40,708 nucleotides of DNA. Source: an uncultured Oscillospiraceae bacterium. GTDB taxonomy: Bacteria; Bacillota; Clostridia; Oscillospirales; Oscillospiraceae. The position numbers and the translations under genes were made by a program. The stretch's first letter is position 1, and every line of letters starts with the position of its first letter. The notes under the pieces were generated by a model. That model saw only the letters and a list, made by a program, of their open reading frames with translations, was not told the DNA's origin and ran no database searches. Positions 773 through 31,823 of this stretch are shown here, piece by piece. The stretch lies in the NCBI GenBank assembly GCA_905233785.1, contig CAJOCV010000049.1, forward strand, positions 1 to 40,708. Reading direction: 5' to 3'.

Positions 773-784
773 ATGAGTGTTTTT

Positions 785-1907: not shown

Positions 1908-1948
1908 CTGATTTTAGAAGGACTTACCGCGAAACATGTGCATGAAAA

Positions 1949-2048: not shown

Positions 2049-2115
2049 ATACACAGTTTGTGTTTATATACAGTCTCTGTTGTTAATCCAAGTTTAATCA
2101 ACGAATGTTTGGAGG

Positions 2116-2352: not shown

Positions 2353-2602
2353 TACATTATCTATAAACATCAAAGCAACTGGTAGAAAAATCGCAACTGT
2401 TAGGGAAAGCGCAGGCTTATCTGTTGCAGATTTACAACAGATTCTGGGCTTTGAGGCTCCGCAGGCCATATACAAGTGGCAACGCGGCGAATCATTACCT
2501 AAATTGGATCATCTTGTGATTGTGGCTGAGGTTTGCCAAGTTCCTTTGGATGATCTAATTGTGCTATCGATAAATTCTAAAACAAAAGGAACCGAGGAAT
2601 AA
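2339..2602 (+). CDS. XRE-family helix-turn-helix transcriptional regulator
   Basis: IATVRESAGLSVADLQQILGFEAPQAIYKWQRGESLPKLDHLVIVAEVCQVPLDDLI is a classic HTH_3 pattern. GGAGGG lies upstream. Overlaps the preceding gene by 14 nt. Confidence 0.8.
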   Translation: MRTVSTLSINIKATGRKIATVRESAGLSVADLQQILGFEAPQAIYKWQRGESLPKLDHLVIVAEVCQVPLDDLIVLSINSKTKGTEE

Positions 2603-2854
2603 TGCAAGGAGAACCGCTTTTACCCGACCTATATCGTCAATTCGTAATTGCCGGCCTGGCCTACGAATCGCCGTACTGGGATTACATTTCCTGTACCGGG
2701 GAAATTGATGCGCTGGACGAAGAAATCGTTCTTCTATGGCACAAGCATATTGCAAGTAGTATCAGAACCAATTAGTGAGCTACCCAAAGCTAAAGCACTT
2801 GAGGAGGGCATTTTAGGCTGCTCCGCATGGTTGAGAGACAAAAGAGAAAACAAG

Positions 2855-6330: not shown

Positions 6331-7877
6331 ATACACTCAAAAAAACTGCATCTGAAGAAGCCATCCCCCATCTGATAATTGTAGATGGCGGAGGTGAACA
6401 GCCTGCTTTCGCCGAACGAGATATTAACCACATGCAAACCATTCTCTCCCAGTTCTCCGAAAATAAGCTCATGGATGACAAGTGGCAGATTCGAATTTCA
6501 TCATCGATACGTCAGACAAGTGTACTCTTCCCGGCATTGCCTCGTATGATTGATATTCTTTTGATTCGTGCCCTTGTTTTGCAGATGCTTTCTTATGCAT
6601 CCTCTTCCATTGGCCGTGCTGTCAAAGACGCTGAATGGATCCTTGGCTTCTTTAGTGATCATCATATTTACATCGAGAACTGTCGAACGGCAGTGGTTGA
6701 CCTCATTATCAAAGAATTGGATCGTACTGCTGATTTCTCTGTGATGCAAAAGAACTCGATTATGACAACACTTGGCACCATGATCGAGCTTTGTGAGGGA
6801 TTCGGTTTGGTCGCGGGGACAGGCATTGTAGATTGCAGCTACCGGTGGAAGGATACCCGGTTTCCAAAGCGGGCTACGGATGCCTGTGTAATCGAGCAGC
6901 TCGACTCCTATTTCTTCGATCCCATAATCGACATTCCACTGCAGTATCGCACGGTATATATGCTGTTGCGCCTTATCAGCAATCGGATCAGTGAAGTGCT
7001 GTTCATGCCTATCGACTGCCTCATTTATCCGGATATTGATACATATTCCATCAGCATTCCGACGCAGAAGGCTACACCCTATCATGTTCCAAAGTATAAG
7101 CAGTATCCTAAGAAGCTGTCCGGAATTGAAGAAGGTCTCTTGCACCGCTGTCTCTGCGAACTCCAACAATATGCTGAAAGTCAGCAGAACCACCTTCCCT
7201 GTCAGCACCAGAACCTTCTGTTCGTTTCTCCAACCGGAAACACCATCGTCACAACATCTGATGTCAACGACTATTTCAAGGACATCTGTGTGAAGTACCT
7301 CATCAAGGACTCTTCTGGAAACCAGGCTATCATTACTACGCATGATCTGCGTCATACCGCTGTTGTGGAACGTTTTAAATACGGGGTCATCTCTCCATAC
7401 CAAACTATGCGTGAGAGCAATCACAGCAGCCTCTCGCAGACGTTAGGCTACAGTTACGCCTCTGTACATGATGAAACGGAAAAGTTCACGGAGATCTCTG
7501 AGGAGGTTCTAAGCAATTTCCTACTCTTGCCTGCATCTGGTGAAGTCAAGCCGCGCGAGCTCGCGACAAAGAAGTTCCTTGCTCTGAAAGAAGATCCAAA
7601 CACACGGCTTCTGTTAGACGGCTCCATCTGTCTAAATCGATCGTGTGTGCCAAGCTTTGAGGCCTGCTCCGACTGCGAAGACTTCCATGTTGATCCTATG
7701 TACCAGGAAGCCTTGGAAAGCTACATTGCCCTTCTCTCCGATAGATCTCAGATGCTCAGAAGCAAGGGTGGTAATCCAGATACGATTGCTTTTATCGAGC
7801 ACCAAGTTGAAGTCTATACGAAAATGCTGAACAAAATCAAACGTTGCGCAGAGAGCGCGGAAAGAAAGGTTAGCTAA
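6327..7877 (+). CDS. tyrosine recombinase 3 of 3
   Basis: SNRISEVL (Arg), IPTQKAT (Lys), THDLRHTAV (H-x-x-R) and LGYSY (Tyr). Start proposed at TTG 6327, 7 nt after GGAGG (6315-6319) and overlapping the upstream stop as TTGA. The ORF track's ATG 6288 is an in-frame alternative without an RBS. Confidence 0.78.
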   Translation: MNTLKKTASEEAIPHLIIVDGGGEQPAFAERDINHMQTILSQFSENKLMDDKWQIRISSSIRQTSVLFPALPRMIDILLIRALVLQMLSYASSSIGRAVKDAEWILGFFSDHHIYIENCRTAVVDLIIKELDRTADFSVMQKNSIMTTLGTMIELCEGFGLVAGTGIVDCSYRWKDTRFPKRATDACVIEQLDSYFFDPIIDIPLQYRTVYMLLRLISNRISEVLFMPIDCLIYPDIDTYSISIPTQKATPYHVPKYKQYPKKLSGIEEGLLHRCLCELQQYAESQQNHLPCQHQNLLFVSPTGNTIVTTSDVNDYFKDICVKYLIKDSSGNQAIITTHDLRHTAVVERFKYGVISPYQTMRESNHSSLSQTLGYSYASVHDETEKFTEISEEVLSNFLLLPASGEVKPRELATKKFLALKEDPNTRLLLDGSICLNRSCVPSFEACSDCEDFHVDPMYQEALESYIALLSDRSQMLRSKGGNPDTIAFIEHQVEVYTKMLNKIKRCAESAERKVS

Positions 7878-8306
7878 ATGGAAACAGAGAGTAAAAATAC
7901 CTTTACAAACCTTAGTAACCATCAGAAGGAAATGCGCGCAGAAATGACACAAAGAGTTCTCAACGCTCTGGAATACTTTGATGAGTGCGGGATAAAAGCG
8001 ACAATGAAAGCGCTTGCTGAACACATAGGATGTCATGTGAACACTCTCAAGCAGCCATATATACGCGAACTTCTGAACGAGCGCAAATGTGCACCCAAGA
8101 AGCCGGATCTTGAGACTGAAAACCGTCTTTTGAAAGAGCGCAACAGTAAACTCGAAGAGAGACTGGCTCATTCTCTCAATCACAATGCGAGACTGCAACA
8201 AGAGAAGGAAACTGCGAAGAAGCGAGCAGATGAATATGAATACAAGTACAGATGTCTTCTTGGTAAATACCAAATTGAGGTTGGGAAGAAAAATCCTCAC
8301 ATTTAA
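7878..8306 (+). CDS. TnpC-like (DUF6262-like) coiled-coil protein
   Basis: 142-aa ORF starting directly after the recombinase 3 stop (TAAATG). N-terminal HTH-like segment (IKATMKALAEHIGCHVNTLKQ) followed by a charged coiled coil. Its position matches tnpC of Tn554-type modules. Confidence 0.55.
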   Translation: METESKNTFTNLSNHQKEMRAEMTQRVLNALEYFDECGIKATMKALAEHIGCHVNTLKQPYIRELLNERKCAPKKPDLETENRLLKERNSKLEERLAHSLNHNARLQQEKETAKKRADEYEYKYRCLLGKYQIEVGKKNPHI

Positions 8307-8314
8307 CGCCAAAA

Positions 8315-8353
8315 GTAATAGCCGTCACATGTTTAGCATGTAACGGCCATTAC
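8315..8353. terminator. bidirectional terminator-like hairpin at the end of the recombinase operon
   Basis: GTAATAGCCGTCACATG-tttag-CATGTAACGGCCATTAC, 17-bp stem with 2 mismatches. Followed by TTTCTG on the plus strand and by CTTTTGG on the minus strand. Confidence 0.5.
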
Positions 8354-8530
8354 TTTCTGTCACGTACAGAACGCCGGCTTTCCGCCAATTCTTAGCAGAT
8401 GTTCTTTACAAAGACAACAAAGGAAAGGACAATAATGATTCCAAAGACATATAACAATCAAACCATTGAAATTACTTGGTTATCTCTTTATTGTCCATTT
8501 TTTGATGCCTTTGTTTCTTCACATCTTAAT

Positions 8531-8590
8531 GGTCGAACTCCCGGCTTCCACATCCCAAATGTGGCGCCCTACCAACTGGGCTACACCCGG
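8531..8590 (-). pseudogene. tRNA-Pro(UGG), 5' ~60 nt only, truncated after the T-loop
   Basis: Minus strand reads CCGGGTG-TA-GCCC-AGTTGGTA-GGGC-G-CCACA-TTTGGGA-TGTGG-AAGCC-GGGAG-TTCGACC. That gives the acceptor 5' half, a paired D stem, a paired anticodon stem with anticodon TGG and G37, and the 5' T-stem plus T-loop. The next bases (ATTAAGATG) cannot form the 3' T-stem or acceptor strand. Confidence 0.65.
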
Positions 8591-8667
8591 CTATTGTCAA
8601 AAGGAACACGCTCCGAGCTCCTTCGCTCGCGCAACGAATGACAAGAGAGGAAAATCTCGGCTCGCAT

Positions 8668-8696
8668 ATTATATACCAAGTTTTCGCTCAGTGCAA
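8668..8696 (-). promoter_or_regulatory. sigma-A-type promoter for the tRNA-Pro gene, now pointing into the element
   Basis: Minus strand reads TTGCAC (8696-8691), a 17-nt spacer and TATAAT (8673-8668), about 75 nt upstream of the tRNA 5' end. Confidence 0.55.
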
Positions 8697-8777
8697 GAGA
8701 TTTCTGGCTGTCGCTGCAAGCCCTATGCGCGCGCTGTAATTTTTCGGGCATACATACTTTTTTTATTCACAAAGCTG

Positions 8778-8786
8778 TGCTATACT
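8778..8786 (+). promoter_or_regulatory. possible extended -10 (TGcTATACT) for secA
   Basis: TGCTATACT lies 33 nt upstream of the secA ATG. There is no good -35, so this is weak. Confidence 0.3.
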
Positions 8787-8818
8787 CTAATCTGCATCAC
8801 TGTAAAAAGGAGTATACC

Positions 8819-11590
<2,772 letters not shown>

Positions 11591-11596: not shown

Positions 11597-12298
11597 ATGG
11601 AGTCGCTGAAACAGTACATTTATCTCGATGAAGGCGGAATAGACAGCTTATATGCACAGATTGCAGAAGAAATAGTAGTCGAACGGGAATTTGAAGTTGA
11701 AAAACATTCTGCTGGCGAGGCAAAAGGAACTTTTTCTGCAAAACTGAATGAGCTGTTAGATACAGGCATCAGTCTATCGGGGGAGGGGGGGACAGCAAAT
11801 ACTACTCGCGTAAAAACCACATTTCCCATGGAAAAAAAGCTGATGCTTATTCAACTCTATGTCAAGGAAAATGAAAACCTGATTGAGCATTACGGAGACA
11901 TTTCGAGGAAATACAAATCAAACAGCCAGAATTTCGTTCTATTAACAGATAAATTTGATACCAGTCTTGATTGCCGGGATTGGTCGAATGCCATGCGACA
12001 GATTGCTCAATTCGAGTATATTCCATTCTATAAAGCTCCTTCTGAGAAGGCAGACAGCTATGAATATGATGATTCGTATTATAAAACCATGTCAATGTAT
12101 CACACAAAAGTGACCATGAATCTTGGTGTGCAGAAGATGCGGGATGGTTATTTTCACAGTTTTGGAATGACATCGCACATGGCAGTATTGTTTCGTATAT
12201 GCCGCGGGGAGAATATTCCGTTAGGAGTTTTTGGCCATCTTTATAAATTAACGGAAGATATATTCCAGATTAAACCTTATGCTGTATGGCGGGTATGA
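11597..12298 (+). CDS. orphan hypothetical protein (233 aa), AT-rich
   Basis: ORF-track ORF starting 6 nt after the secA TGATAA double stop. Its composition contrasts strongly with both neighbours. No motif recognised. Confidence 0.65.
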   Translation: MESLKQYIYLDEGGIDSLYAQIAEEIVVEREFEVEKHSAGEAKGTFSAKLNELLDTGISLSGEGGTANTTRVKTTFPMEKKLMLIQLYVKENENLIEHYGDISRKYKSNSQNFVLLTDKFDTSLDCRDWSNAMRQIAQFEYIPFYKAPSEKADSYEYDDSYYKTMSMYHTKVTMNLGVQKMRDGYFHSFGMTSHMAVLFRICRGENIPLGVFGHLYKLTEDIFQIKPYAVWRV

Positions 12299-13241: not shown

Positions 13242-14888
13242 ATGAGAAAGAACGTACGCAGAATCCTCGCGCTGCTGCTGTGCGCGGCGCTGCTGAGTCT
13301 GAGCGCCTGCGGGAGGCGAGAGGACGACGGCGGGGATGTCCCCGACTCCACCGGCGGCACCGAGATCGTCAAGGGCTCCGCGGCGGACAACAAGTTTACG
13401 ATGAACGTGAACCTGCGCTACAGCCGCAACCCCCTCGTTGCGACCAACCGCTCCAACCAACTGATCTGTGACCTCGTGTATGAGAACATGATCGAGCTGA
13501 ACGACAGCTTTGAGCCCATCGAGGGCGCGGGGATCATTACCGAGTGGGAGTGCAGCGACGACGGCAAAAGCTGGACGCTCACCGTCGGGGAGGGACACTA
13601 TTTCCACGACGGCAGTGAGGTGACGCCCCGGGACGTCAGCTATTCCCTCGGCCTCGCCATCAATGCCGACCGCTTTGCGGGACGCTTTTCGAGCTTTCAG
13701 GGCGCGTCCCCCGGCGAGGGCGTGGTGCTGGTCGCCCTCGGCATCGGGGACAGCTCCTTCATCCGTCTTCTGAACATCCCCGTTATCAAGTCCGGCACCT
13801 ACGGCGAGAAGCGCGATTATGGAAACACCCCCATCGGCAGCGGCCCCTATACCTACAATGAGGACGGTACGAAGCTCGTCGCGGCCGAGACTTACCCCGG
13901 CTACGAAGACCTGCCTGTCAAGGAGATCTCCCTGACCGAGTATCAGACCGCCGATGAGATCATCTCCGCCTTTGAAAGCGGGCTCATTGACGTGGTGACG
14001 AACGACCCCTCGAGCTACACAAACCTCGGCTATGCCAGCACGAACGAAATCCACACCTATGCCACCACCAATATGCATTACGTCATGTTCAATGAGGAGA
14101 GCATGCTGGGGCGCTACAGCTATTTCCGTCTCGCGATGCAGCACGCCTTCGACCGGGAGTATCTGGTGGAGCTGCTGCACGGCAACGCCGTCGCGACGCC
14201 CATTCCCATGTACCCGAGCTGCCGGGACTACCCGAGCGGCCTCGCCTCGGGGCTCGACTACAATCTGGAGAGCTGCCGCCGCATCCTCGAGGTCGCCGGT
14301 GTGCGCGATTACGACGAGGACGGGGTGCTGGAGTTTATGAACGGCTCCCCGCAGGAGATCCAGCTCAACATTGCCGTCTGCGCCGACAGCAGCGCCAAGG
14401 CCGGCGTCGTGCGCAAGTTTCAGGAGGATATGGCGAGCCTCGGCCTCACCGTCGCCGTACACGAGATGACCTGGGACAATTACATGAAGGCGCTGGAGGA
14501 GGGCGAGATCGCCATTTCCAACACCGGCACACAGACCGTGCCGCTGGATATGTACTACGGCGAGGTCAAGCTCAGGCCGAACTTCGACCTGACCGAGCTT
14601 CTCCAACCGCGCAGGGAGGAAAACGAGCGTACCAACATCAACTACAGCCGCTCCACCGACCAGGGCATCGTCGGACAGATCGAAAACTATCTCGCGGCCA
14701 ATCCCGCCACCCGATCCGGCGCTTACTATCAGTTCTGCCAGTATCTCACCGGGCAGACCGCCTCACTGATCACCATCGGCTTTGAAAAGCAGCAGATCAT
14801 CACCCGCCGCGGCGTCTGCAAGGGTGTGGAGCCAAACGCGGGCAATCCGCTCTATAACTTTGAAAACTGGACAATCGACCTTGCGTGA
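13242..14888 (+). CDS. ABC transporter substrate-binding lipoprotein, family 5 (peptide/nickel type)
   Basis: Signal peptide with lipobox LSLSAC. ITEWECSDDGKSWTLTVGEGHYFHDGSEVTPRDVSYSL matches the SBP_bac_5 signature region. Confidence 0.85.
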   Translation: MRKNVRRILALLLCAALLSLSACGRREDDGGDVPDSTGGTEIVKGSAADNKFTMNVNLRYSRNPLVATNRSNQLICDLVYENMIELNDSFEPIEGAGIITEWECSDDGKSWTLTVGEGHYFHDGSEVTPRDVSYSLGLAINADRFAGRFSSFQGASPGEGVVLVALGIGDSSFIRLLNIPVIKSGTYGEKRDYGNTPIGSGPYTYNEDGTKLVAAETYPGYEDLPVKEISLTEYQTADEIISAFESGLIDVVTNDPSSYTNLGYASTNEIHTYATTNMHYVMFNEESMLGRYSYFRLAMQHAFDREYLVELLHGNAVATPIPMYPSCRDYPSGLASGLDYNLESCRRILEVAGVRDYDEDGVLEFMNGSPQEIQLNIAVCADSSAKAGVVRKFQEDMASLGLTVAVHEMTWDNYMKALEEGEIAISNTGTQTVPLDMYYGEVKLRPNFDLTELLQPRREENERTNINYSRSTDQGIVGQIENYLAANPATRSGAYYQFCQYLTGQTASLITIGFEKQQIITRRGVCKGVEPNAGNPLYNFENWTIDLA

Positions 14889-15096
14889 TTCCTCAGTCCC
14901 TTTGAAGGGACTGAGGAATCAGAAGGGCACTTGCGCTCATCGCACGAGGCGCTCGGGGGATGCGCCTCGTTTGGTCGGCGCAAGGCCTCGCACAGCTCGG
15001 CTCAGGGTGTTTTTGAGGCGGCAAAGCTGCCTCAAAAACGGATTATCCTTTGTTTTTCGCCATCCGAGGCGAAAAATCAGAGGGGGTTCCCTCTGA
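14887..15096. repeat. composite multi-hairpin intergenic repeat (modules A, C, B)
   Basis: Module A is hairpin GATTCCTCAGTCCC/GGGACTGAGGAATC (14887-14920). Module C (14934-15043) recurs inverted at 31007-31116. Module B (15049-15096) recurs at 29947-29996. Confidence 0.75.
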
Positions 15097-15148
15097 ACTC
15101 CCCCGATTAAAGATGACTTGGAATCAATCTGTGAGAGGAGATAGAATC

Positions 15149-15789: not shown

Positions 15790-15922
15790 CCAGTGGTCAG
15801 CAAGAGAAAAACGGATTGCCGCGCCAGCGTACATTCTGGCGTTGCAATCCGTTTCCTATTACTAATCACTATTCACTGACCACTGATCACTGACCACTGA
15901 CCACTGACCACTGTTCACTCCG
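15772..15922. repeat. inverted heptad-repeat structure around a central hairpin
   Basis: Four heptads GTGGTCA/GCGGTCA/GTAGCCA/GTGGTCA at 15772-15799. Central hairpin AAACGGATTGC...GCAATCCGTTT at 15809-15854. Eight heptads with consensus CACTGAC at 15867-15922, which are the reverse complement of the left set. Confidence 0.75.
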
Positions 15923-17195
15923 GATAATACCCCGTGACCTTTTCCAGCCCGTAGTAGTCCGCGACGCTGTAGTTCGGCCAGTCCTCCGCATCGAGGGAGA
16001 GCGTGAAGGCCACGCTGCAGCCCGAGCGGGGAATGTAGCTTTCAAGCCGCACTTCGCGCTCCCCCGCGGCAAGGGCGCTTTGGATCAGCGCCTCGCGCGC
16101 AAGGGACTTTTTATAGATCACCGCGACATCCAACATCCCAAAGGCAAAGCGCGCGAGAAACAGCGCTGCCAGCAGCGCGCAGACCGTCCGCCGCCAGCCC
16201 TTCCCGAAGCAGGGCAGCGCCTGCTCCAGCAGGAGCAGCACGGAGAGCGCCGTGAAAAACACCGTGGTGCAGAAGTGCCGCCCGGTGAAGTAGAGCGCGA
16301 AGGCGTAGGCCGCGAGCGCACCGAGACCCGCCAGCAGCAAAATCACCGCAAGCGTGATGCGTTTTTTATCCCCCTTCGCCCGGATCGCGAGCCAGAGGCA
16401 CAGCCCCCACAGCAGGTACAAGAGCCCCAGCTTTCGCAGCGTCTGCTCTGCGATGGCGCCGAAATTGGCAAAGGCCGCGGCGAGATCCGCGCTGCCGGCG
16501 CGGCCGTTCGTAGCCGGAGCCGTCATGAGGAAGACATAGCCGGCCAGCGCAAGCAGAATGCCCAGAATGCCCTGCCAATCGAGCCTGCGGGTGAGAAGGC
16601 TGAGACAGACGGCGGTAAACAGCATCGCGAGCACGCCGCTCTCCGACCAGGTGCCGGCCACGAAGGCGAGGGCGAAAAACAGCAGGCTCTTCCACCAGGC
16701 GCGTTTTTGCGCAATGCCGAGATAGGCCGCCGTATAGGGCCACAGAAACAGCAGAAACAGGCTCACGCCCCAGGAATAGTTCACCGCGCCCGTGAGCCAG
16801 AGGGAGACCTCCCCGAACGCGGGCTGAAACGTGAAGAGCAGGGACGCGCTCACGATCAGAACCGCAAGCTGCCGCCGATCCTTGAGGTGCCGCGCAAAAA
16901 GCCACAGCAGCAGCACGGCGTTGGCGGCGTTTAAGAGATTAAAAAGCCCCTTCGGGCGGATCAGCAGCGCCTGCACCAGTCCGTGCACCAGCACGCGCCC
17001 ATTGGTGAGCTCGCGGTGCACGCGCATGGAGGGAAAAATTTGCGCAAGGCTCGTGACGCGCGCGTTTGAGCCCCAGGCAAAACAATAGGAAAAATCGTCC
17101 GCCACCATGGGCGAGAGCGCCGTGATCGTCAGCATCCAGCAGAACACCAGCGCGAAAAAGACGGATTCGGCTTTGCGGTCGGACAGGCGGTTCAT
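15915..17195 (-). CDS. polytopic membrane protein, GT-C-like / DUF6056-like (paralog B)
   Basis: Start set at ATG 17195 (MNRLSDRK...), preceded by AAAGGAG. Many TM segments. The first-loop motif SPMVADDFSY and NGRVLVHGLVQ are shared with the upstream paralog. Confidence 0.75.
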   Translation of the reverse strand: MNRLSDRKAESVFFALVFCWMLTITALSPMVADDFSYCFAWGSNARVTSLAQIFPSMRVHRELTNGRVLVHGLVQALLIRPKGLFNLLNAANAVLLLWLFARHLKDRRQLAVLIVSASLLFTFQPAFGEVSLWLTGAVNYSWGVSLFLLFLWPYTAAYLGIAQKRAWWKSLLFFALAFVAGTWSESGVLAMLFTAVCLSLLTRRLDWQGILGILLALAGYVFLMTAPATNGRAGSADLAAAFANFGAIAEQTLRKLGLLYLLWGLCLWLAIRAKGDKKRITLAVILLLAGLGALAAYAFALYFTGRHFCTTVFFTALSVLLLLEQALPCFGKGWRRTVCALLAALFLARFAFGMLDVAVIYKKSLAREALIQSALAAGEREVRLESYIPRSGCSVAFTLSLDAEDWPNYSVADYYGLEKVTGYYPE

Positions 17196-17205
17196 GGCGC
17201 TCCTT

Positions 17206-18687
17206 TCAGTCATTGACATATTCCGTGACCCGGTAGTCGCCGAGCCCGTAGTAGCGGGCGATGTCGCCGGTAAAATAGCTCTCATCCCCCGGCCAGGTGG
17301 CGGGGTATTTGCTGCGCGTGACGACAGGCTCCACAATCACATCCGCGCCGCTTCCCGCGAGGGAGCGGAGATAGGATTCCCGCTGAACGCTCTGATGATG
17401 AACGGCGGCAATATCCGCTGCCGCAAGCGGCGTCAGCAGGAGTGCCAGCGCCGCGAATACGGCGGCAAAGCGCTTGAGATCGGCCTTTTCGCCCTGATCC
17501 CAGAGCCCCGCGAGCAGCAGCGCGTCGGCAAGGCTCGTATAGCAGACAAAGGGGCAGGCCGAGCGGGCGGGGAAGTAGACCGCCACCAGAAAGATGAGCA
17601 CCGAGGCAAGCCCCGCAAGTCCCAGCAGCAGCGCCGCGAGCAGCACGCGCTTGTCCAGCCCCTTCTCCAGCCCCCGCAGCATCAGCAGCGCCCAGAGACA
17701 GAAGGCCGTGAGCAGCAGCAGCGGCGTATCGGACACAAAAGCGCCGACAGAGCCGTCGCGCCGGGCAAACAGGACAAGCGCGATCGCAAGCCCCAGTCCA
17801 AGCGCCGACGATCCGAGACGGCAGCCGAGCGTCCTCTTTCGCAGCAGCAGCCGCACAAAAAGCGCCAGCGTCAGCAGCGCAAGCGCGCCAAGCGCCGTGA
17901 GCGCGGCAGGGGAGAAGCGTTCGGCCAGCCGGACGGCGGCCTTCGTCAGCGTGCTGTCGGACACCTCGCCGCGCCGCCCGCTCCATTCCGAGGGAGCGGA
18001 CATCAGAAACAGAAAGCCGAGACAGGACACGAGAAAGCTTCCCGCCAGAAAGCGGGGGAGCTTCTTTTCCCGAAGCCAGCTCAGCCCCAGAAAGCCGGAG
18101 GCGGCGCAGAGCATCGCGAGCGAGCCGTTTTCCGACCACGCGCCAGCCGCAAAGCCAAGCGGCAGGTACAGGGCGCGCGTCACAGCGTCCATTCTGACTT
18201 CGCGCCCCATGTAGTGGGCAAAGAAGGGGTAGAGAAAGCCGAAGGTGACAAGAATCGTCCAGGAATAGTTGCAGGCTCCCGTGAGCCAGAGAAACACCTG
18301 CCCGAAAGCGGGCAGCAGCACGAAAATCAGCGAAAACAGCAGCACGGCCAGCAGCAGATCCCGCCCGGCCTCGCCCCGGCGCACATACCTGTACAATATA
18401 AAAAAAAGCAGCGTGCCCAGCCCGGCGTTGAGGACGTTGAAGACCGGCCGCGGCCAGAACAGAAAGAGCTGGACAAAAAAATGCGCCAGCACCCGCCCGT
18501 TGGTGTTCTGCCGCAGAGCGATCATGGAGGGGATGATTTCGTCCGGCGCGGTGACGCGCCCCCAGTGCGAGCGGCTGAAGGTAAAGAGAAAATCATCCGC
18601 CGTCATGGGCGTGAGAAAGTTAAAAACCAGCAGCAGCACGAAAATCAAAGCGAAGACGGCGCAGATCCCGACCCGAGCCTTTTTCAT
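17206..18687 (-). CDS. polytopic membrane protein, GT-C-like / DUF6056-like (paralog A)
   Basis: Start set at ATG 18687 (MKKARVG...), preceded by GGAGGTGAGGAA. Motifs TPMTADDFLF and NGRVLAHFFVQ. Its stop lies 10 nt before the start of paralog B. Confidence 0.75.
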   Translation of the reverse strand: MKKARVGICAVFALIFVLLLVFNFLTPMTADDFLFTFSRSHWGRVTAPDEIIPSMIALRQNTNGRVLAHFFVQLFLFWPRPVFNVLNAGLGTLLFFILYRYVRRGEAGRDLLLAVLLFSLIFVLLPAFGQVFLWLTGACNYSWTILVTFGFLYPFFAHYMGREVRMDAVTRALYLPLGFAAGAWSENGSLAMLCAASGFLGLSWLREKKLPRFLAGSFLVSCLGFLFLMSAPSEWSGRRGEVSDSTLTKAAVRLAERFSPAALTALGALALLTLALFVRLLLRKRTLGCRLGSSALGLGLAIALVLFARRDGSVGAFVSDTPLLLLTAFCLWALLMLRGLEKGLDKRVLLAALLLGLAGLASVLIFLVAVYFPARSACPFVCYTSLADALLLAGLWDQGEKADLKRFAAVFAALALLLTPLAAADIAAVHHQSVQRESYLRSLAGSGADVIVEPVVTRSKYPATWPGDESYFTGDIARYYGLGDYRVTEYVND

Positions 18688-18858
18688 TTCCTCACCTCCA
18701 TAGATAAAGGAATAAAAAAATTTTAGCACAAGAGCGCCGAAAAAGCTATAGCTTTCTCTCCAAAACCACCGGAACGACGGAGAGAAACGAAGGCGCTCGC
18801 GCTGTCAGATTGCCTCCGGCATTTGCAGAAAAAAATTACAAAAACAGTGAAATTCCTC

Positions 18859-18887: not shown

Positions 18888-19054
18888 ATCAGAGCGCGTG
18901 TGCGAGAGCACGGGCGTATTATGCGAGGAAGCGGGAGATTGCTCGCGGTAGCGAGGTAACTTCCGTGGAGTATGTCCGGTGTCGGCTCCGTGCCGGCACG
19001 CAATCGGGCGGCTGAAACCGATCCTGTATTCGCGTATATCGCGTGTGCGGAGGA

Positions 19055-22846: not shown

Positions 22847-23731
22847 ATGGGACAGAAAGTTAATCCCCACGGCCTGCGCGTTGGCGTTATCAAGGATTGG
22901 GATTCCCGCTGGTATGCGCGCGAGGACAAGGTCGGCGATCTGATCGTCGAGGATCACAAGATCCGTGAGTATCTGAAGAAGGCTCTTTATTCCGCCGGCG
23001 TTCCCACCATCGAGATCGAGCGCGACTCCGCCAAGGTTCGCATCTATATCCACTGCGCCCGTCCCGGCGTCGTCATCGGCAAGGGCGGCGAGCAGATCGA
23101 GAAGCTGCGCCTCGAGGTCGAGAAGCTCATCGGCAAGCCCGTTGCGCTCTCCATCGTCGAAGTTCGCACTCCCGATACGAATGCTCAGCTTGTGGCCGAG
23201 AACATCGCCCAGCAGCTCGAGAAGCGCATCGGCTTCCGCCGCGCCATGAAGAACGCCATGGGTCGCGCCATGAGAATGGGCGCCCGCGGCATCAAGGTCA
23301 AGTGCGGCGGCCGTCTGGGCGGCGCTGAGATCGCCCGCAGCGAGTGCTACCACGAGGGTACCATCCCCCTGCAGACCATCCGTGCCGACATCGACTACGG
23401 CTTTGCCGAGGCGAACACCACCTACGGCCGCATCGGCGTCAAGGTTTGGATCTACAAAGGCGAGGTCCTCTCCCAGACCCTGCGCACCACTCCGCGCACG
23501 ATGGATCTCTCCAAGCCCGCCGGCGAGCGCCGTCGCAGAGACGACCGCCGCCAGGGCGGTGACCGCCGTCAGGGCGGCTACAACCGCGACAACAATCGCC
23601 AGGGCGGCTACAATCGCGACAATCGCGACGGCAACCGTCAGGGCGGCTATGGCAGCAGACCCCAGGGTCAGGGCGGCTACAACCGCGGACCCCGTCCCGC
23701 CGCTCCCGCTAAGGAAGGAGGCAACAACTAA
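22847..23731 (+). CDS. rpsC: 30S ribosomal protein S3 with a ~80-aa low-complexity R/Q/G/N/Y tail
   Basis: [24 protein letters not shown]... is the core. Tail is [57 protein letters not shown]. Confidence 0.95.
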
Positions 23732-25911: not shown

Positions 25912-26097
25912 ATGGCTAAGAAATCTATGATCCTCAAGCAGCAGGCGCCTGCGAAGTTCTCCACCCGCAAGTACAACCGCTGCAAGATCTGCGGTCGTCC
26001 TCACGCCTATCTGCGCAATTACGGCATCTGCCGTATCTGCTTCCGTGAGCTGGCCTACAAGGGTCAGATCCCCGGCGTGCGCAAGGCGAGCTTCTGA
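25912..26097 (+). CDS. rpsN: 30S ribosomal protein S14, type Z (zinc-binding, 61 aa)
   Basis: [11 protein letters not shown]... [23 protein letters not shown]. Confidence 0.95.
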
Positions 26098-26113
26098 TCT
26101 CAGACTACAAAAC

Positions 26114-26152
26114 AAAAAGCTTTGAAGAATTTTCTTTCTTCAAAGCTTTTTT
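26114..26152. terminator. strong bidirectional rho-independent terminator directly after rpsN
   Basis: AAAGCTTTGAAGAA-ttttct-TTCTTCAAAGCTTT is a perfect 14-bp stem, flanked by AAAAA on the 5' side and TTTTT on the 3' side. This position is normally read through into rpsH. Confidence 0.8.
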
Positions 26153-26196
26153 AATAAGGGTAACAATTCAATCAGTACAACAAACAAACTGAATTG

Positions 26197-26847
26197 TTAC
26201 TCTGCCGTACTGCTTGCGACGGTATGGTTTTTGTAAGTGCTCCAGGTTGGCTCATAGCCGGGATCGGCCTGATTACCCCACATATCCCATCCTTCGCGAT
26301 CTCCTCGCGCAAATAACTCGATGCGATTTGGCTGACTGCAGGACTCAATGATCGGTATGATCTCGTCCGGTTTTCTACTGTGTTCACGCTTTTGCGCTCT
26401 GATAAGGTTGACTTGAGATCGTGCGGGTGCTAAGGTTCGGTTGGGCGCACTGTTCTTTTTTATGCCAAAGAGCAGCAGTTCGGTAACATTACGAAAATAA
26501 AATCCGACGCCGCGCCCGTCAGGCAAGCCGTCCTTGCGTACTTTTTCCCAAACGACATTTCCCTTGTATTCAAAGCCCCAGGAATCCATCACTGCCAAGC
26601 CGTCCGGAAGCAAGGCGTTGGGAATCCATAGGTATAAATGAGCTTTCTGGTCTGCAATATTGGCAACGGGAAGTGCCTTGATGTCCTCCAGGGTCATTGT
26701 TTCATATCTTGAAAGCCTTTTGTGCTCAGGGGAAACTTTACCTGTGCGGTTTTGAAATTGCCATGGGGGATCAGCGTATATTGTGTTATATTTTTTACCA
26801 TTTGTGAATGTTAAAAGGTTATTCGAGGTCTCCTCAAGATTACTCAT
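26197..26847 (-). CDS. MT-A70-family DNA methyltransferase (DPPW motif)
   Basis: YADPPWQF is catalytic motif IV. AT-rich. Its ATG overlaps the stop of the upstream endonuclease gene (ATGAGTAA). Confidence 0.8.
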   Translation of the reverse strand: MSNLEETSNNLLTFTNGKKYNTIYADPPWQFQNRTGKVSPEHKRLSRYETMTLEDIKALPVANIADQKAHLYLWIPNALLPDGLAVMDSWGFEYKGNVVWEKVRKDGLPDGRGVGFYFRNVTELLLFGIKKNSAPNRTLAPARSQVNLIRAQKREHSRKPDEIIPIIESCSQPNRIELFARGDREGWDMWGNQADPGYEPTWSTYKNHTVASSTAE

Positions 26848-27499
26848 ATCCTTTCACACATCCCTTCTTGATGCCGATAGCCAGGATTGGGCATCCGCCG
26901 TTCCGTCTACTATCAAGCCGGTATAGCAGTTTACCAATCCAGGTGGTCGAGGCGCCATATTTTGTCAATAAACCAAGTTCCCTGAAAATGTCATTCAGAT
27001 CCTCTGATCGGGTGACAATTACACCGACGTCGATTAATCCGCAATCAAAATATGTTCGCATGGCAAGCAAATCGCGATCAAAGGTTTGGTCTTTGCTGTT
27101 CCATTCAAGGTCAAAGGCGACTTTGTTTTTCAGAAAATCAATATTGTGGCCATCAATATAACCGCGTATGGTCTCAATTTCAAACGGCTCAGACGCAAAT
27201 CGGCCTCTGCGCTGGGCAACCTGACGAGGATACTTTTTTACAATCAGATCTCCGGATATACGAATTTCACGCCATCCGAGAGGGTAGAGGACATCATCAA
27301 ATTTTTTCGGAATCGGAGATTCATTACCGCCCGCTTTCCTTATATCCATCAATGACAACTCAAGCTGTCGAAGAGATTGCTGTATCTCATTCCATTCCTC
27401 CGGAAAGCTTTCATGCAAAATCTCCAAAGCGTGTCCGTAGTCGTAAAACTCAAATTTTGGCTGAATAGCCGGATCTATATAAATACCGTTTGCGATCAC
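26840..27499 (-). CDS. type II restriction endonuclease, BglII/BamHI-fold candidate
   Basis: YDYGHALEILHESFPEEWNEI and IDFLKNKVAFDLEWNSKD resemble, from memory, BglII YNHADEIL...WKEI and IDFGKRDTLVEVQFS. Start set at GTG 27499, 7 nt after GGAGG (27511-27507). The ORF-track start at 27556 is a TTG only ~9 nt from the predicted TSS. Confidence 0.6.
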   Translation of the reverse strand: MIANGIYIDPAIQPKFEFYDYGHALEILHESFPEEWNEIQQSLRQLELSLMDIRKAGGNESPIPKKFDDVLYPLGWREIRISGDLIVKKYPRQVAQRRGRFASEPFEIETIRGYIDGHNIDFLKNKVAFDLEWNSKDQTFDRDLLAMRTYFDCGLIDVGVIVTRSEDLNDIFRELGLLTKYGASTTWIGKLLYRLDSRRNGGCPILAIGIKKGCVKGYE

Positions 27500-27571
27500 G
27501 CAGCTACCTCCTCGCGCAACATAACTCAACGTATAAGAAAACATCCAAAAGGACAAAAAACCATAATAAAT

Positions 27572-27600
27572 AGTATATCATTACGGAAGCAACATTTCAA
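27572..27600 (-). promoter_or_regulatory. sigma-A promoter for the R-M operon
   Basis: Minus strand reads TTGAAA (27600-27595), a 17-nt spacer and TATACT (27577-27572). Confidence 0.6.
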
Positions 27601-27635
27601 TCTCTTAAGAAGGCCTAAATCACGGAAATTACAGA

Positions 27636-27664
27636 TTGCTTTTCTATACTATTAATGATAAAAT
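27636..27664 (+). promoter_or_regulatory. candidate sigma-A promoter for the HD-GYP gene
   Basis: TTGCTT (27636-27641), a 17-nt spacer and TAAAAT (27659-27664). Confidence 0.45.
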
Positions 27665-27716
27665 GCGGCAAACGGAAATGCGGCCTGTCTGTATTCGTCC
27701 ACCGAGGAGGTAAAGC

Positions 27717-29858
27717 ATGGAGAATCACGCTGACAAATGGAAGCGACTGCGCCTGAAGAGTCTGCGCAACGCCTCGCTGTTGACACTCATCTGTCTGGGC
27801 GTCAACATCCTTTTCTCGCGTTTTGCGCTGTGGCTTGGGCTGCCGATTTATCTCGACAGCATTGGCACTGTGCTGGCCGCGGCGCTGGGCGGTTACCTGC
27901 CCGGTATTGCCGTGGGCATCCTCACAAACCTGTTCGGAAGCCTGTCCGACCCGATCACCGCCTACTATGCGAGCATCAATGTGCTGCTCGCGGTCACGGT
28001 GGCGCGCTTTGCGGATAAGAAGGGCTTTGAGAGCAAAAAGCTCGGCGAGTTTTTCCTGCTGACCGGGCTGCTCACGCTGGTCGGCGGCGGTCTCGGTTCG
28101 ATCCTGACCTGGCTGCTGTATGACTTCGGCTTTGGCGAGGGGATATCCGGCCCCCTGGCGCAGAAGCTCTTCTCCGCCGGGCTTCCCTCCTTCTGGGCGC
28201 AGTTGAGTGCGGATCTCGTTCTGGATTTTCCTGACAAATTGATCACGGTGGGCGTCGTCGATGGGGTGATCCGGCTGCTTCCGGAGTGGATGCAAACCGA
28301 GCTTAGACCCGTAGGCTGGCGGCAGGCGCCGCTGAATCACAATGCCCGCTGGGAGTCCTTGCACCGCAAGACCCGTTCCGGGAGCCTTCGCCGCGCCACC
28401 ATGGCGCTGGTAGTGCTGGCCTCGCTCATGGTGGCGGTCGTGACGATCACGGTGAGCGTCCTGCAGTTTCGCCGCACACTGATCAACCAGCATGCCGAGC
28501 TGGGGCAAACCGTGACCAGGCTGGCCTCCAAGGTCTTTGATCATGACCGTGTGGATGACTTCCTTGAGCAGGGGGAAGCCGCCGAGGGGTATCGGGAGGC
28601 GGAGCAGCGGCTGTATACCATTCGTGACAGCTCGCCTGAGATCGAGTATATCTACGTCTACCGCATTCTGCCCGACGGCTGCCATGTGGTCTTCGATCTG
28701 GACACGGACGACGTGCCCGGCGGCGAACCCGGCGAGGTGATCCCGTTCGATCGTTCTTTCACGCCCTACTTGTCCACGCTGCTGGAGGGCGGCCGGATCG
28801 AGCCGCTCATCACCAACGACACTTACGGCTGGCTTTTAACGGTGTATGAGCCGATTTACGACAGCGACGGCAGATGCACTTGCTACGCCGCCGCGGACAT
28901 TTCCATGGGCGAGCTGAGCCGTATCGCGCTCAATTACCTTGTGCGCGCGGTGGCGCTGTCCCTGGGGATGCTGCTGCTGATCTTCTTCCTCGGTCTGTGG
29001 CTGGCAGAATTTCATGTTGTGCTGCCCATTAACTCCATGGCCTGGGCGGCGGGCAGCTTTGCCTACGATAACGAGCAGTCACGCAGCGGGAGCCTGGAGC
29101 TGATTCACAATCTGGGAATCAGCACCGGGGATGAAATCGAAAACCTCTATAAAGCGCTCGCGCTCACTACCGAGGAGACTGCCCGCTACATCGCGGATGT
29201 GCAGAAAAAGAACGCCACCATCTCCCGGATGCAGAACGGCCTGATCCTCGTGCTGGCTGACATGGTGGAGAGCCGCGACCAGTGTACCGGCGACCATGTG
29301 CGCAAAACAGCCGCCTACACCCGCATCATCCTCGAGCAGATGCGAAAAGAGGGCATTTACGCCGAGCAGCTCACGGACGAATATATCGAGGACGTGGTCA
29401 ACTCCGCGCCGCTGCACGATGTGGGCAAGATCCAGGTGTCCGATACGATCCTGAATAAGCCCGGCAAGCTCACCGACGAGGAGTTTGCCATCATGAAGAG
29501 CCATACCACCGCCGGCGGCGAGGTCATCGCTCACGCCATCGCGCTGGTGTCCGAGCCGGGCTATCTCGCCGAGGCGAAAAACCTTGCCACCTACCATCAC
29601 GAGCGCTGGGACGGCCGGGGATACCCCGCCGGCCTCAAGGGGGAGGACATTCCGCTCTCAGCCCGCGTCATGGCGGTGGCGGACGTGTTCGACGCGCTGG
29701 TTTCCCGACGCAGCTATAAGGCGCCGTTCCCCTTTGAGAAGGCGATGGACATCATCCGAGAGGAGGCCGGGACGCACTTCGATCCCCAGGTCGCCAAAGC
29801 CTTCCTCGACGCCGAGACTGAGGTTCGCCGCGTCGCCGAGGAGTTTAAGGAAGAGTAG
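27717..29858 (+). CDS. membrane-anchored HD-GYP domain protein (putative c-di-GMP phosphodiesterase) with a multi-TM N-terminus and an extracytoplasmic Cache-like segment
   Basis: AGGAGG RBS. N-terminal TM bundle (LPIYLDSIGTVLAAALGGYLPGIAVGIL). The sensor-like segment YIYVYRILPDGCHVVFDLD...TYGWLLTVYEPIYDSDG is followed by another TM. HD-GYP motifs are HDVGKIQV and YHHERWDGRGYPAGL. Confidence 0.85.
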   Translation: MENHADKWKRLRLKSLRNASLLTLICLGVNILFSRFALWLGLPIYLDSIGTVLAAALGGYLPGIAVGILTNLFGSLSDPITAYYASINVLLAVTVARFADKKGFESKKLGEFFLLTGLLTLVGGGLGSILTWLLYDFGFGEGISGPLAQKLFSAGLPSFWAQLSADLVLDFPDKLITVGVVDGVIRLLPEWMQTELRPVGWRQAPLNHNARWESLHRKTRSGSLRRATMALVVLASLMVAVVTITVSVLQFRRTLINQHAELGQTVTRLASKVFDHDRVDDFLEQGEAAEGYREAEQRLYTIRDSSPEIEYIYVYRILPDGCHVVFDLDTDDVPGGEPGEVIPFDRSFTPYLSTLLEGGRIEPLITNDTYGWLLTVYEPIYDSDGRCTCYAAADISMGELSRIALNYLVRAVALSLGMLLLIFFLGLWLAEFHVVLPINSMAWAAGSFAYDNEQSRSGSLELIHNLGISTGDEIENLYKALALTTEETARYIADVQKKNATISRMQNGLILVLADMVESRDQCTGDHVRKTAAYTRIILEQMRKEGIYAEQLTDEYIEDVVNSAPLHDVGKIQVSDTILNKPGKLTDEEFAIMKSHTTAGGEVIAHAIALVSEPGYLAEAKNLATYHHERWDGRGYPAGLKGEDIPLSARVMAVADVFDALVSRRSYKAPFPFEKAMDIIREEAGTHFDPQVAKAFLDAETEVRRVAEEFKEE

Positions 29859-29861
29859 TCG

Positions 29862-29996
29862 TAACGATTCAGTCCCGTTCCGGGACTAAATCGTTAGAGG
29901 GGATGCACCCCGCTGCGCGCACTCGCGGCGGGGGAACGCTCGCAATTTTGTTTGCCGCCTTCCGAGGCGGCAAATCAGAGGGGAGTGCCCCTCTGA
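29862..29996. repeat. second copy of hairpin-repeat modules A and B
   Basis: Module A is TAACGATTCAGTCCCG-ttc-CGGGACTAAATCGTTA (29862-29896). Module B (29947-29996) is TTTGCCGCC-ttccga-GGCGGCAAA followed by TCAGAGGGG-agtg-CCCCTCTGA. It parallels 15049-15096, with paired changes in the first of its two stems. Confidence 0.7.
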
Positions 29997-30044
29997 TACT
30001 AAGTCTCAATAAGATGGTTTAGAAAGATTCCGAGGCAGATTTAA

Positions 30045-30908
30045 GCTGCTTTCCAAACCGCGGCGGACGCCGGTGTCGCGGACGCATGGTACTATCTGGG
30101 GCGGGTCGCCTATCAGCGCAGCGACTTCGATGCTGCCATCGCCTACTTTGAAAAGGGCGCAGAACAGGGCAGCGAGCTCGCGCGTTTCAATCTTGGGATC
30201 CTGTATGTGAACAACGAAGGTTTGGACTTGAATCTGGACGCAGATTATGCCAAAGCGCAGGCGCTCTTTGAGCAGGCCGTGGAAAACGGCTGCGTTGAGG
30301 CAAACTGCGGGCTCGGGGATTTATACCAGAGCGGCTACGGCGTTGAAGCAGACGGGGCTTCCGCGCTGGCGTACTTCCTCCTCGCCGCGGAGTCGGACGA
30401 CCCTGAGTGGGCTCCGTATGCCTGGCTCAGCATTTACGAGGTATATACTGCAGCGCCGGACCTTGATATGGACAGCGAAGAGGCCAAGGCCTGGGGCGAG
30501 AAGGGGCTTGAAGGCAAAATGCTGCTTGCCGATGCCGGGCATCCCAAAGCCGAGTTCAGTCTGGGCTACCTCTACTATGCCGGCCTTGACGTCGAACAGG
30601 ATTATGGCGCGGCGATGTCGTGGTTTCTGAAAGCGGCCGAGATCGGGGATGCGAGATCTATGCGTTTTATCGCTTATATGTACGACAAGGGTCTTGGCGT
30701 AGAGGAAGATCAGGAAAAAAGCACGGAGTGGTATCTGAAGGCCGCGGAAGCCGGATACACCTCTGCCATGAGTACGGTCGGCAAGCGCTATGAGCTCGGC
30801 AAAGGCGTAGAGCAGAATATCGAAGCGGCAATCGAGTGGTACCGGAAAGCAGCCGAAGCCGGGAACGAAAAAGCTGCGGAACGTCTGGCGGAGTTGACCG
30901 GAAAATAA
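30045..30908 (+). pseudogene. Sel1/TPR-repeat protein, 5'-truncated
   Basis: Sel1-like repeats (A..W..KAAE.G...A...LG..Y) continue in frame upstream of the ORF-track GTG at 30207, back to a TAA at 30042-30044. That 162-nt stretch has no ATG, GTG or TTG, and there is no RBS or signal peptide. Confidence 0.6.
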
Positions 30909-31006
30909 GTCAGCGGCGCAGCACCGAGCATTGCGACGCGAAGACAGTCCTTTAGAACTCGTCCGAGTGGTCAGTTTTCAAGAAAACGACCACAGCTTCC
31001 ATTCCA

Positions 31007-31116
31007 ATCCGTTTTTGCCGGGGCTTTGCCCCGGCAAAAACACGTTCAGCCGAGCTGGGCGAGGCCTCCCGCCGACCAAACACAGCGCATCCTCCGCGCA
31101 CTGTGTGCGATCAGCG
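31007..31116. repeat. inverted copy of hairpin-repeat module C
   Basis: Aligns over 110 nt to the reverse complement of 14934-15043. Shared blocks are ATCCGTTTTTG, CAAAAACAC, AGCCGAGCTG, GCGAGGCCT, GCCGACCAAAC and GTGCGAT. The hairpin stems differ but stay paired. Confidence 0.75.
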
Positions 31117-31187
31117 TGAACTTATCCATCGCGAAACAAAATTTCGCGATGGAAGCAAAAAAGTTATCAAAAATCCGTAAAAAAAGC

Positions 31188-31216
31188 TTGCAAAGCGTTA
31201 CAGGCTTTGATATACT
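31188..31216 (+). promoter_or_regulatory. sigma-A promoter dedicated to the rpsH-distal half of the spc operon
   Basis: TTGCAA (31188-31193), a 17-nt spacer and TATACT (31211-31216), followed by a ~200-nt leader up to the rpsH ATG. Confidence 0.65.
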
Positions 31217-31424
31217 ATCAAATTGCGAGGCGACGCGTCCAACTGTCTTAAAAGAGATAAGGGACGTGTCCGATTGTGCTGTTTACACCAGGTCTGATCA
31301 GCCTGCTGTAATAAATTCAAAGGACGGCGAAAGGCCGTGGCCAATCAGGTATTGGCATGGAACCTCGCCGCCTGAACTGTGGACTGACCCATCCGCAGTA
31401 ACTCTAAATCAGGAGGAACGATTT

Positions 31425-31823
31425 ATGCAGATCACCGACCCCATCGCAGATATGCTGACCCGCATCCGCAATGCCGGAAGCGCGAAGCATGAAACCGTCG
31501 ATGTCCCCGCGTCCAAGATGAAGAAGTCCATCGCTGAGATTCTGCTGAGCGAGGGCTACATCAAGAACTACCAGGTCATTGACGACGGCACCCAGGGTGT
31601 CATCCGCATCACCCTCAAGTATCTCCCCGGCAAGGAGAAGGCCATTCAGGGTCTTCGCCGTGTCAGCAAGCCCGGCCTGCGCGTGTATGCCGGCGCTGAC
31701 GAGCTGCCCCGCGTTCTGCGCGGTCTGGGCATTGCCATCATCTCCACCTCCAAGGGCGTTATGACCGACAAGCAGGCTCGCAAAGAGCATGTCGGCGGCG
31801 AAGTCCTTGCGTTCGTATGGTAA
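31425..31823 (+). CDS. rpsH: 30S ribosomal protein S8
   Basis: [17 protein letters not shown]... AGGAGG lies 8 nt upstream. The ORF-track start at 31026 runs through the repeat and promoter and is rejected. Confidence 0.95.

Follow-up and report, generated by a model that had tools for sequence, protein, structure and literature searches.

How does the spc ribosomal operon accommodate more than 5 kb of accessory genes between two of its members? The question is raised by a contig of 40,708 nucleotides (nt) from an uncultured Oscillospiraceae bacterium (GenBank assembly GCA_905233785.1, contig CAJOCV010000049.1, forward strand; hereafter the window), a Clostridia genome of ~60% guanine-plus-cytosine (GC) content, in which the genes of the S10-spc-alpha ribosomal cluster run from ~19.1 kb to 40 kb. 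There rpsN, which encodes the zinc-binding short form of S14 (61 amino acids (aa); 25912-26097, plus strand; Pfam Ribosomal_S14, E 1e-25) and closes the upstream half of the spc operon, stops at 26097, and rpsH, which encodes S8 (31425-31823, plus strand; Pfam Ribosomal_S8, E 4e-54), starts at 31425, leaving a gap of 5327 nt. The gene map and Pfam matches place a restriction-modification (R-M) system, an HD-GYP signalling gene and a Sel1-repeat gene in this gap, bearing out an earlier reading of the sequence alone (the original prediction) that accessory genes lie within the spc cluster. We consider it likely that the rpsN-rpsH junction is a long-standing permissive site at which accessory genes accumulated stepwise, next to an rpsH leader RNA that resembles an S8 operator.

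In a look-up of the exact S8 sequence, eleven contigs of other samples were found to encode it (contigs are cited below by L numbers), and from these the islet, as we term the interposed DNA, is with high confidence both real and modular. Contig L081 carries S14, methylase, endonuclease, HD-GYP, Sel1 and S8 in the same order as the window at 99.5-99.8% nucleotide identity, L085-87 share the rpsN/R-M junction of the window, terminator included, and L082, L083 and L088 share its Sel1/rpsH junction. The left junction, the right junction and the gene order thus recur in independent contigs with an identical S8, and the caveat of the original prediction, that rpsN and rpsH might really be adjacent and the split a misassembly, finds no support. 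L5, L6 and the methylase are called in L081 as split or shortened genes, and the contig has 8 nt of indels relative to the window; these features look like frameshift-type assembly errors, not biology.

Five architectures are seen among the window and its sister contigs: the HD-GYP gene only (L084, L089 and the more distant L105 and L109), the R-M genes only (L085-87), R-M plus HD-GYP (L101, L102), R-M plus HD-GYP plus an intact 340-aa Sel1 gene (L081), and R-M plus HD-GYP plus a beheaded Sel1 gene (the window). The modules, as defined by BLAST, span 26099-27648 (R-M), ~27630-29868 (HD-GYP) and 29869-31156 (Sel1), and the right boundary at 31157 is common to the variants (L084-87, L089, L090, L101-105). 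Of the ~5.3 kb mosaic insertion originally described, the split and the mosaic nature stand, but one single insertion does not, since the modules vary among sister contigs. HD-GYP alleles of 78-100% aa (77-100% nucleotide) identity lie upstream of rpsH in L081, L084, L101-105 and L109, and in contigs whose rpsH region is 95-97% identical to that of the window the HD-GYP module is 77-83% and the R-M module 79.5% identical at the nucleotide level. Because these alleles are far more diverged than their flanks and occupy the same site in several lineages, HD-GYP and R-M appear to have been resident there for a long time, and within the islet HD-GYP is the oldest of the modules; only the nearest kin of the window are seen to carry Sel1. 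The R-M-only form still has half of the HD-GYP promoter region, on the upstream side, together with an HD-GYP-type right flank, and so looks like a secondary deletion, while L084, with HD-GYP only, has no trace of R-M and carries its own terminator-like hairpin after rpsN. We conclude that the islet is old in part, modular and polymorphic between strains.

Two other explanations of the islet were weighed against these data. A chimeric contig, in which repeats joined the rpsN and rpsH flanks to unrelated DNA, would suit a source that is probably a metagenome-type assembly, the presence of hairpin repeats at the module borders, a junction at 29869-30042 that is unique to the window, and exact-protein look-ups that found nothing on record for either the HD-GYP protein or the endonuclease of the window; yet independent assemblies from several samples contain the same junctions and the full gene order at 92-100% identity, and we give such an artefact next to no credence. 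A single recent insertion of one mobile element (a transposon, an integrative islet or a phage remnant) carrying all the genes would agree with the AT-rich R-M genes starting immediately after the rpsN stop, and tyrosine recombinases do occur elsewhere in the window (2648-6330), but the modules occur separately or differently combined in sister contigs, the HD-GYP and R-M alleles diverge to 77-80% nucleotide identity at the same site, and HD-GYP and Sel1 have a host-like GC content. Nor does the islet or its surroundings have the makings of a discrete mobile element: a Pfam scan of the islet open reading frames (ORFs) gave no recombinase or transposase domain, and searches around the islet for flanking direct or inverted repeats, terminal repeats and a target-site duplication gave only short matches at chance level. 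With modules that vary independently, insertion as one element is very unlikely, and stepwise accumulation at a permissive site accounts better for the pattern.

To place the interruption in its phylogenetic context, the 80 closest GTDB species representatives were retrieved with L5 as query, 72 of which have rpsN and rpsH on one contig. The rpsN-rpsH gap is below 60 nt in 42 of the 72 (largely Acutalibacteraceae, Ruminococcus and unclassified Clostridia metagenome-assembled genomes), 120-704 nt in 27, and above 1 kb in none, and R-M, HD-GYP or Sel1 genes are present at the rpsN-rpsH locus in none of the 72. An S14 protein identical to that of the window is widespread among relatives, and in ten further relatives carrying it the gap measures 225-539 nt with no ORF called within. 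A long gene-free spacer is thus the norm for the closer relatives of the window (S8 identity of at least 80%), and the insertion of genes at rpsN/rpsH is lineage-specific. The synteny comparison proposed with the original prediction accordingly finds no gene in the gap of any of the 72 representatives, so that the split is not a family-wide trait.

The long spacer is not featureless, and the conserved, S8-like leader that it contains, adjoining the islet in the window, is in our view the most interesting item of the locus. Alignments of the regions upstream of rpsH in the window and its relatives (A2-A5) and a covariance model built from ten sequences (R1) delimit a family-wide structured rpsH leader of ~105 nt at 31319-31424 (plus strand), a candidate S8 operator. 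It consists of a helix P1 (31321-31330 paired with 31365-31373), an invariant internal loop (AAGG at 31331-31334, AACC at 31361-31364), a helix P2 of variable length (31335-31360), a hairpin P3 (31376-31399) and an anti-Shine-Dalgarno element, in which the CUCU (31402-31405) of the motif GUAACUCU is able to pair with the Shine-Dalgarno (SD) sequence AGGAGG (31411-31416). When 1.39 Mb from 82 sources was searched with cmsearch, R1 had matches in 22 (21 loci and the window; E 5e-23 to 6e-3), and all 22 lie directly upstream of rpsH and end at its start codon; two extra marginal matches (E >0.2) include one inside another rpsN-rpsH spacer. The alignment has 93% of its cells paired, as against ~40% in slid controls, 20 of the 28 pairs change on both sides, and none of 500 shuffles attains the observed values. 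The segment 31217-31424 has no match in Rfam 15 at the gathering threshold, nor at E<=10. That the leader is a genuine structured RNA can be regarded as very likely. A 265-aa ORF at 31026-31823 was considered as a long isoform of rpsH and rejected, its upstream part showing RNA-type compensatory change and no protein-family match.

Outside the immediate family, other Oscillospirales (L007, L024, L025, L026, L029, L030) carry a second type of rpsH leader, ~120 nt upstream of rpsH, that reads GCAAGA-N6-10-CUUGCA followed by AGGAGG and folds differently from the leader of the window. In L007, L024 and L025 this second type contains the same A-GG / NA-CC internal loop. The same loop within differently folded rpsH leaders of neighbouring families suggests, as far as sequence comparison goes, repeated invention of S8 mimics.

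The resemblance to the S8 site resides in the internal loop, which remains invariant while the helices around it covary: its 5' side has an unpaired A and then GG, its 3' side N-A and then CC, and the pair next to the loop alternates between C-G and U-A. The core of the S8 site in helix 21 of 16S rRNA is formed by A595 with the 596-644 pair and by G597-C643 with N641 and the invariant A642, the 595-(596-644) triple being A-(A-U) in E. coli and G-(C-G) in Thermus (PMC4176348). In E. coli the helix 21 site reads UAAGUC...GAUACU. Several leaders read AAGGUCAC...GUGAUACCU and differ from this mainly in a G-C at 596-644 and one extra unpaired A, and the leaders of L053 and L057 read GAAGUC...GGAUACC. 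Because the resemblance is limited to the internal loop and R1 does not detect helix 21 of E. coli 16S rRNA, it was tested with a hand-written descriptor of the S8 site, derived from PMC4176348 in a strict and a looser form, for which 11.4 kb of rpsN-rpsH spacers (39 spacers) served as target and 2.65 Mb of surrounding sequence as background. Applied to E. coli 16S rRNA, the strict form matches once only, at helix 21. It has 8 matches in the spacers, where 0.5 are expected, and the looser form has 20 matches in 19 of the 39 spacers, where 0.8 are expected, a 15-25-fold enrichment that extends across two leader architectures, in sequences that are mutually related. All eight strict matches fall 52-70 nt before the rpsH ATG, and two of the 20 looser matches fall farther upstream. 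On the plus strand of the window the looser form finds the leader (31334/31363) and one site inside the HD-GYP gene. The spacer of L072 (1246-1558) contains two descriptor matches, 300/247 and 114/53 nt before rpsH, so that the S8-site-like element may be duplicated there.

Invariant loop nucleotides and descriptor enrichment together describe a close, not identical, mimic of the rRNA site, located where an autoregulatory leader would be, in the untranslated region of the S8-encoding transcript. We lean modestly toward the leader being bound by S8. Whether it is an S8 operator in the full sense, which would make it the first spc feedback element outside Gammaproteobacteria, divide the regulation of the cluster into two units and create a boundary at which accessory genes can persist, is in our estimate a balanced proposition.

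Our reading of locus and leader meets several observations that weigh against it. The loop is not identical to helix 21, having G-C for A596-U644 and an extra unpaired A, the strict descriptor matches only 8 of the 39 spacers (many leaders are missed because of single mismatches or small irregularities in the flanking helices), R1 is blind to the rRNA site itself, and the S8-like loop precedes the SD by ~50 nt, a distance too great for the start site to be simply occluded as in E. coli. The promoter and terminator calls discussed below are consensus matches only, one islet-free spacer (L003) contains a promoter-like site of its own, and internal promoters may predate the islet. The divergence of the accessory genes relative to their flanks could partly reflect recombination, not age, and the HD-GYP/hairpin/truncated-Sel1 junction at 29869-30042 is found in no other contig. 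The imperfect loop and its distance from the SD would also be expected of a leader that is structured without being an S8 operator and that instead binds L6, L18 or S5, acts as an RNase processing or stability element, or senses a ligand, and the E. coli precedent likewise puts the S8 site at rplE, not at rpsH. The invariant nucleotides of the loop, however, coincide with the S8 recognition set (A595, 596-644, G597-C643, N641, A642; PMC4176348), the enrichment of an rRNA-derived descriptor holds in two unrelated leader architectures, and the element always directly precedes the S8 gene; a role other than S8 binding therefore seems rather unlikely to us.

What does the islet do to expression of rpsH? 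Between the Sel1 module and the leader lies a lineage-specific region (31157-31318, plus strand; fold z-score -3.6), common to the islet variants, that comprises a promoter and two 5' leader hairpins. The promoter-like site (31188-31216, plus strand; promoter scan) reads TTGCAA-17-TATACT with TG before the -10 and is present in every islet-bearing contig, L084, L101, L105 and L109 among these; the hexamers are kept (TTGCAA or TTGCAT, then TATACT), and the 17-nt spacer varies in L105 and L109. No promoter-like and no plus-strand terminator-like sites are found in the islet-free spacers of L001, L002, L091 and L092; given the promoter-like site in the spacer of L003, the contrast between islet and islet-free forms is suggestive, not absolute. 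Each of three variants has a different terminator-like hairpin after rpsN. A pattern scan of metagenomes with a 29-nt leader string recovered one contig, of the HD-GYP/promoter/leader/rpsH variant, and no form with the promoter and without the islet. The original prediction had spoken of a fresh promoter with a ~200-nt leader. A sigma-70-like site with a leader is indeed present, but it is not fresh, being common to islet variants down to 83% nucleotide identity, and the leader is no novelty, its 3' half being the ancient family-wide structured RNA.

The S8 translational operator of the E. coli spc operon (Cerretti et al. 1988; Merianos et al. 2004; via PMC3616713 and PMC10931766) overlaps the start of rplE and occurs in Gammaproteobacteria only (PMC3616713), and spc regulation elsewhere was described as unknown in a 2024 review (PMC10931766). 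The earlier argument that the insertion uncouples the upstream genes from S8 feedback does not carry over: the rplE operator does not extend beyond Gammaproteobacteria, an S8-site-like element directly precedes rpsH, and in islet-free relatives of this family the gap already measures 120-704 nt. With a candidate operator directly before rpsH and an SD of its own after a long spacer, the rpsN/rpsH junction would already have been a regulatory boundary before any insertion. The islet entered upstream of the leader and would leave the presumed feedback loop intact, so that the insertion probably does not break it. An insertion that breaks transcription instead fits the varied terminator-like hairpins after rpsN, the promoter of the islet-bearing forms and islet-free spacers that have neither, and the predicted promoter probably restores rpsH transcription, i.e., is compensatory.

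From these observations we infer the following order of events. The spc cluster would already have comprised two regulatory units, rplN-rplX-rplE-rpsN and the leader with rpsH and the genes beyond, S8 binding to the leader and thereby repressing translation of rpsH and of the closely packed genes that follow. The first insertion upstream of the leader would have been an HD-GYP signalling gene equipped with its own promoter, followed by an AT-rich type II R-M operon, antisense and right after rpsN, that brought a bidirectional terminator, and most recently by a secreted Sel1-repeat gene. Later losses would have deleted HD-GYP from the R-M-only form and beheaded Sel1 in the genome of the window. 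Because terminators now follow rpsN, the sigma-70-type promoter at 31188-31216 would supply transcription of rpsH and the later genes.

The individual modules are in keeping with this scheme. Directly after rpsN lies a bidirectional intrinsic-terminator-like hairpin (26114-26151), a perfect inverted repeat of 16 bp with an A-run on its 5' side and a T-run on its 3' side, which agrees, by consensus match, with the terminator originally predicted there. It belongs to the R-M module, since 26098-26200 shows 99-100% conservation in contigs with R-M genes (L081, L085-87) and is missing from L084, which has HD-GYP only. The module encodes an MT-A70-family DNA methyltransferase with a DPPW motif (26197-26847, minus strand; Pfam PF05063, E 4e-29) and a BglII-family type II restriction endonuclease (26840-27556, minus strand; Pfam PF09195, E 2e-43), with an uncertain start codon (219-234 aa in the gene calls of L081 and L085-87). 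The two ORFs are co-directional on the minus strand with an 8-nt overlap, behind a promoter-like site at 27572-27600 (minus strand; TTGAAA-17-TATACT with TG; promoter scan). An endonuclease adjoining a methyltransferase, both with recognisable catalytic domains, marks this as a type II R-M system. It is AT-rich as first described (43.8% GC), but its genes are in tandem and not mutually convergent, being convergent only with rpsN. The endonuclease had no meaningful match in a PDB sequence search, an NCBIfam search of the R-M proteins gave nothing, and counts of AGATCT, GGATCC, TGATCA and CGATCG against Markov expectation revealed no clear avoidance. The system is like BglII-type R-M in that the match of its endonuclease to Pfam Endonuc-BglII covers the whole domain and a methyltransferase gene shares the operon, and unlike it in that the partner is an MT-A70-family methylase. 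BglII itself is paired with a methylase of another class.

The HD-GYP gene (27717-29858, plus strand) encodes a membrane-anchored 713-aa protein of the cyclic di-GMP phosphodiesterase type (Pfam HD_5/HD, PF13487, E 4e-33). Its translation contains the signature sequences HDVGK and HHERWDGRGYP, from which phosphodiesterase activity is predicted. A putative promoter read from the sequence, TTGCTT-17-TAAAAT with an extended -10 TG, lies at 27636-27665 (plus strand), and the promoter scan flagged the homologous site of L084, TTGATT-17-TAAAAT. With a GC content of 61.1% against 58-60% in the flanking ribosomal protein genes (57.7% in Sel1), the gene has host composition, as stated originally, and homologs at 64-66% aa identity sit at unrelated loci (uvrB/helicase, sufC/gyrB, and beside a MatE gene).

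The Sel1 gene of the window is 5'-truncated: residues 54-340 are encoded at 30043-30908 (plus strand; Pfam Sel1 x4), and the called ORF begins with a GTG at 30207 (30207-30908), its frame remaining open back to ~30045 without an earlier start codon. The remnant is identical at 286 of 287 positions to residues 54-340 of the intact 340-aa, signal-peptide-bearing allele of L081, its 5' end having been replaced, and it was aptly called decapitated. Where the 5' region of Sel1 is intact in L081 (190 nt), the window has a hairpin-rich segment of 174 nt (29869-30042) in place of the Sel1 promoter, ribosome-binding site and first 53 codons. The repeats are retained, and with those upstream parts missing the window copy does not qualify as a gene for a secreted Sel1-like protein and is probably, judging from its sequence, a pseudogene. 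In L082 (1-140) and L083 (1-130) a segment of the 29869-30042 type occurs inverted upstream of intact Sel1, the contigs ending ~50 nt further on, and the 5' junction of Sel1 may be a hot spot for inversion or rearrangement.

Hairpin repeats at the borders of the islet modules are members of a dispersed family resembling repetitive extragenic palindromes, in agreement with the repeats noted originally: a 111-nt dispersed hairpin repeat at 31006-31116 is an inverted copy of 14934-15044 (79% complementary), and the 46 nt at 29947-29992 are 80% identical to 15049-15094. The latter regions belong to a hairpin-repeat cluster at 14885-15100, between an SBP_bac_5 gene and a cytidine deaminase gene, that is kin to the repeats at the module borders.

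Elsewhere in the window, an S10-Clostridia leader (Rfam RF03136) is matched at 18918-18999, and the genes 3' of rpsH are separated by short intercistronic gaps. Ribosomal protein S3 (22847-23731) has 294 aa and a low-complexity C-terminal tail of ~70 residues composed of R/G/Q/N/D repeats; in relatives it has 284-289 aa, so that the C-terminal extension is common to the clade. Two tandem DUF6056 membrane-protein paralogs (15915-18729, minus strand) lie between the cytidine deaminase gene and the S10 leader, with a tandem array of 7-nt units (CACTGAC/CACTGAT; 15858-15913) just 3' of the first, and L092, L097 and L100 have an HTH_1 regulator in the place of the pair. An AT-rich block (38-47% GC) occupies window positions 1-8900 upstream of secA (8777-11590). 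It contains tandem ORFs of the tyrosine-recombinase family (2648-4105 and 4087-6330), one further large ORF (6288-7877) and several others without a family match, and it resembles an integrated element that borders secA. A 233-aa ORF (11597-12298; ~45% GC; weak DUF6414 match) that separates secA from a laccase-domain gene, both of ~62-68% GC, is another small foreign insertion.

The locus matters in two respects. An RNA with an S8-like loop before rpsH in abundant gut and rumen Clostridia turns the question of spc regulation into one that is testable with one protein and one RNA of ~60 nt. The islet, in turn, constitutes a natural experiment in which strains of one lineage differ by 0.3 to 5 kb of foreign, terminator-bearing DNA between the two halves of an operon. 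Such strains could show how much transcriptional and translational coupling essential, highly expressed operons need, and the islet could reveal how R-M systems and genes for signalling come to be safely lodged beside core genes.

Leaders of ribosomal protein genes that resemble rRNA sites are a known kind of regulatory element. The window candidate is like the E. coli S8 operator in being an spc mRNA helix that is broken by an internal loop resembling the S8 site of 16S helix 21, and in lying within the S8-encoding transcript with closely spaced genes downstream. It differs in its position, immediately before rpsH instead of across the start of rplE, in its fold, which comprises P1-loop-P2, the P3 hairpin and a short anti-SD helix with the loop ~50 nt from the SD, in the G-C at 596-644, in its occurrence in Oscillospiraceae, and in that binding of S8 is, from sequence, a candidate property. 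With the S10-Clostridia RNA RF03136 (Eckert and Weinberg 2020, PMC7247131) it has in common that it is a covariation-supported cis-element upstream of a Clostridia ribosomal protein gene; neither the set of that study nor Rfam 15 contains an S8 or rpsH leader. A bulk catalogue of RNA candidates from gut microbiomes (Fremin and Bhatt 2021, Table S4) gives an uninterpreted 58-62-nt candidate, 'HMP2_4246', upstream of rpsH, and an earlier listing of part of the leader motif is therefore possible. A catalogue exists of insertions into the conserved transcription-translation cluster, and the cases detailed in the parts of it accessible to us are at or near operon boundaries (PMC8046335). As in those cases, the islet places a few accessory genes in the most conserved bacterial cluster. 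The same parts treat tusDCB, bfd-bfr, nrdHEF and ilv-leu as clade-level events, in contrast to which the islet described here interrupts spc itself, between rpsN and rpsH, differs from strain to strain and has an R-M system among its genes; an intra-spc, strain-variable islet of this kind is new within the catalogued cluster insertions.

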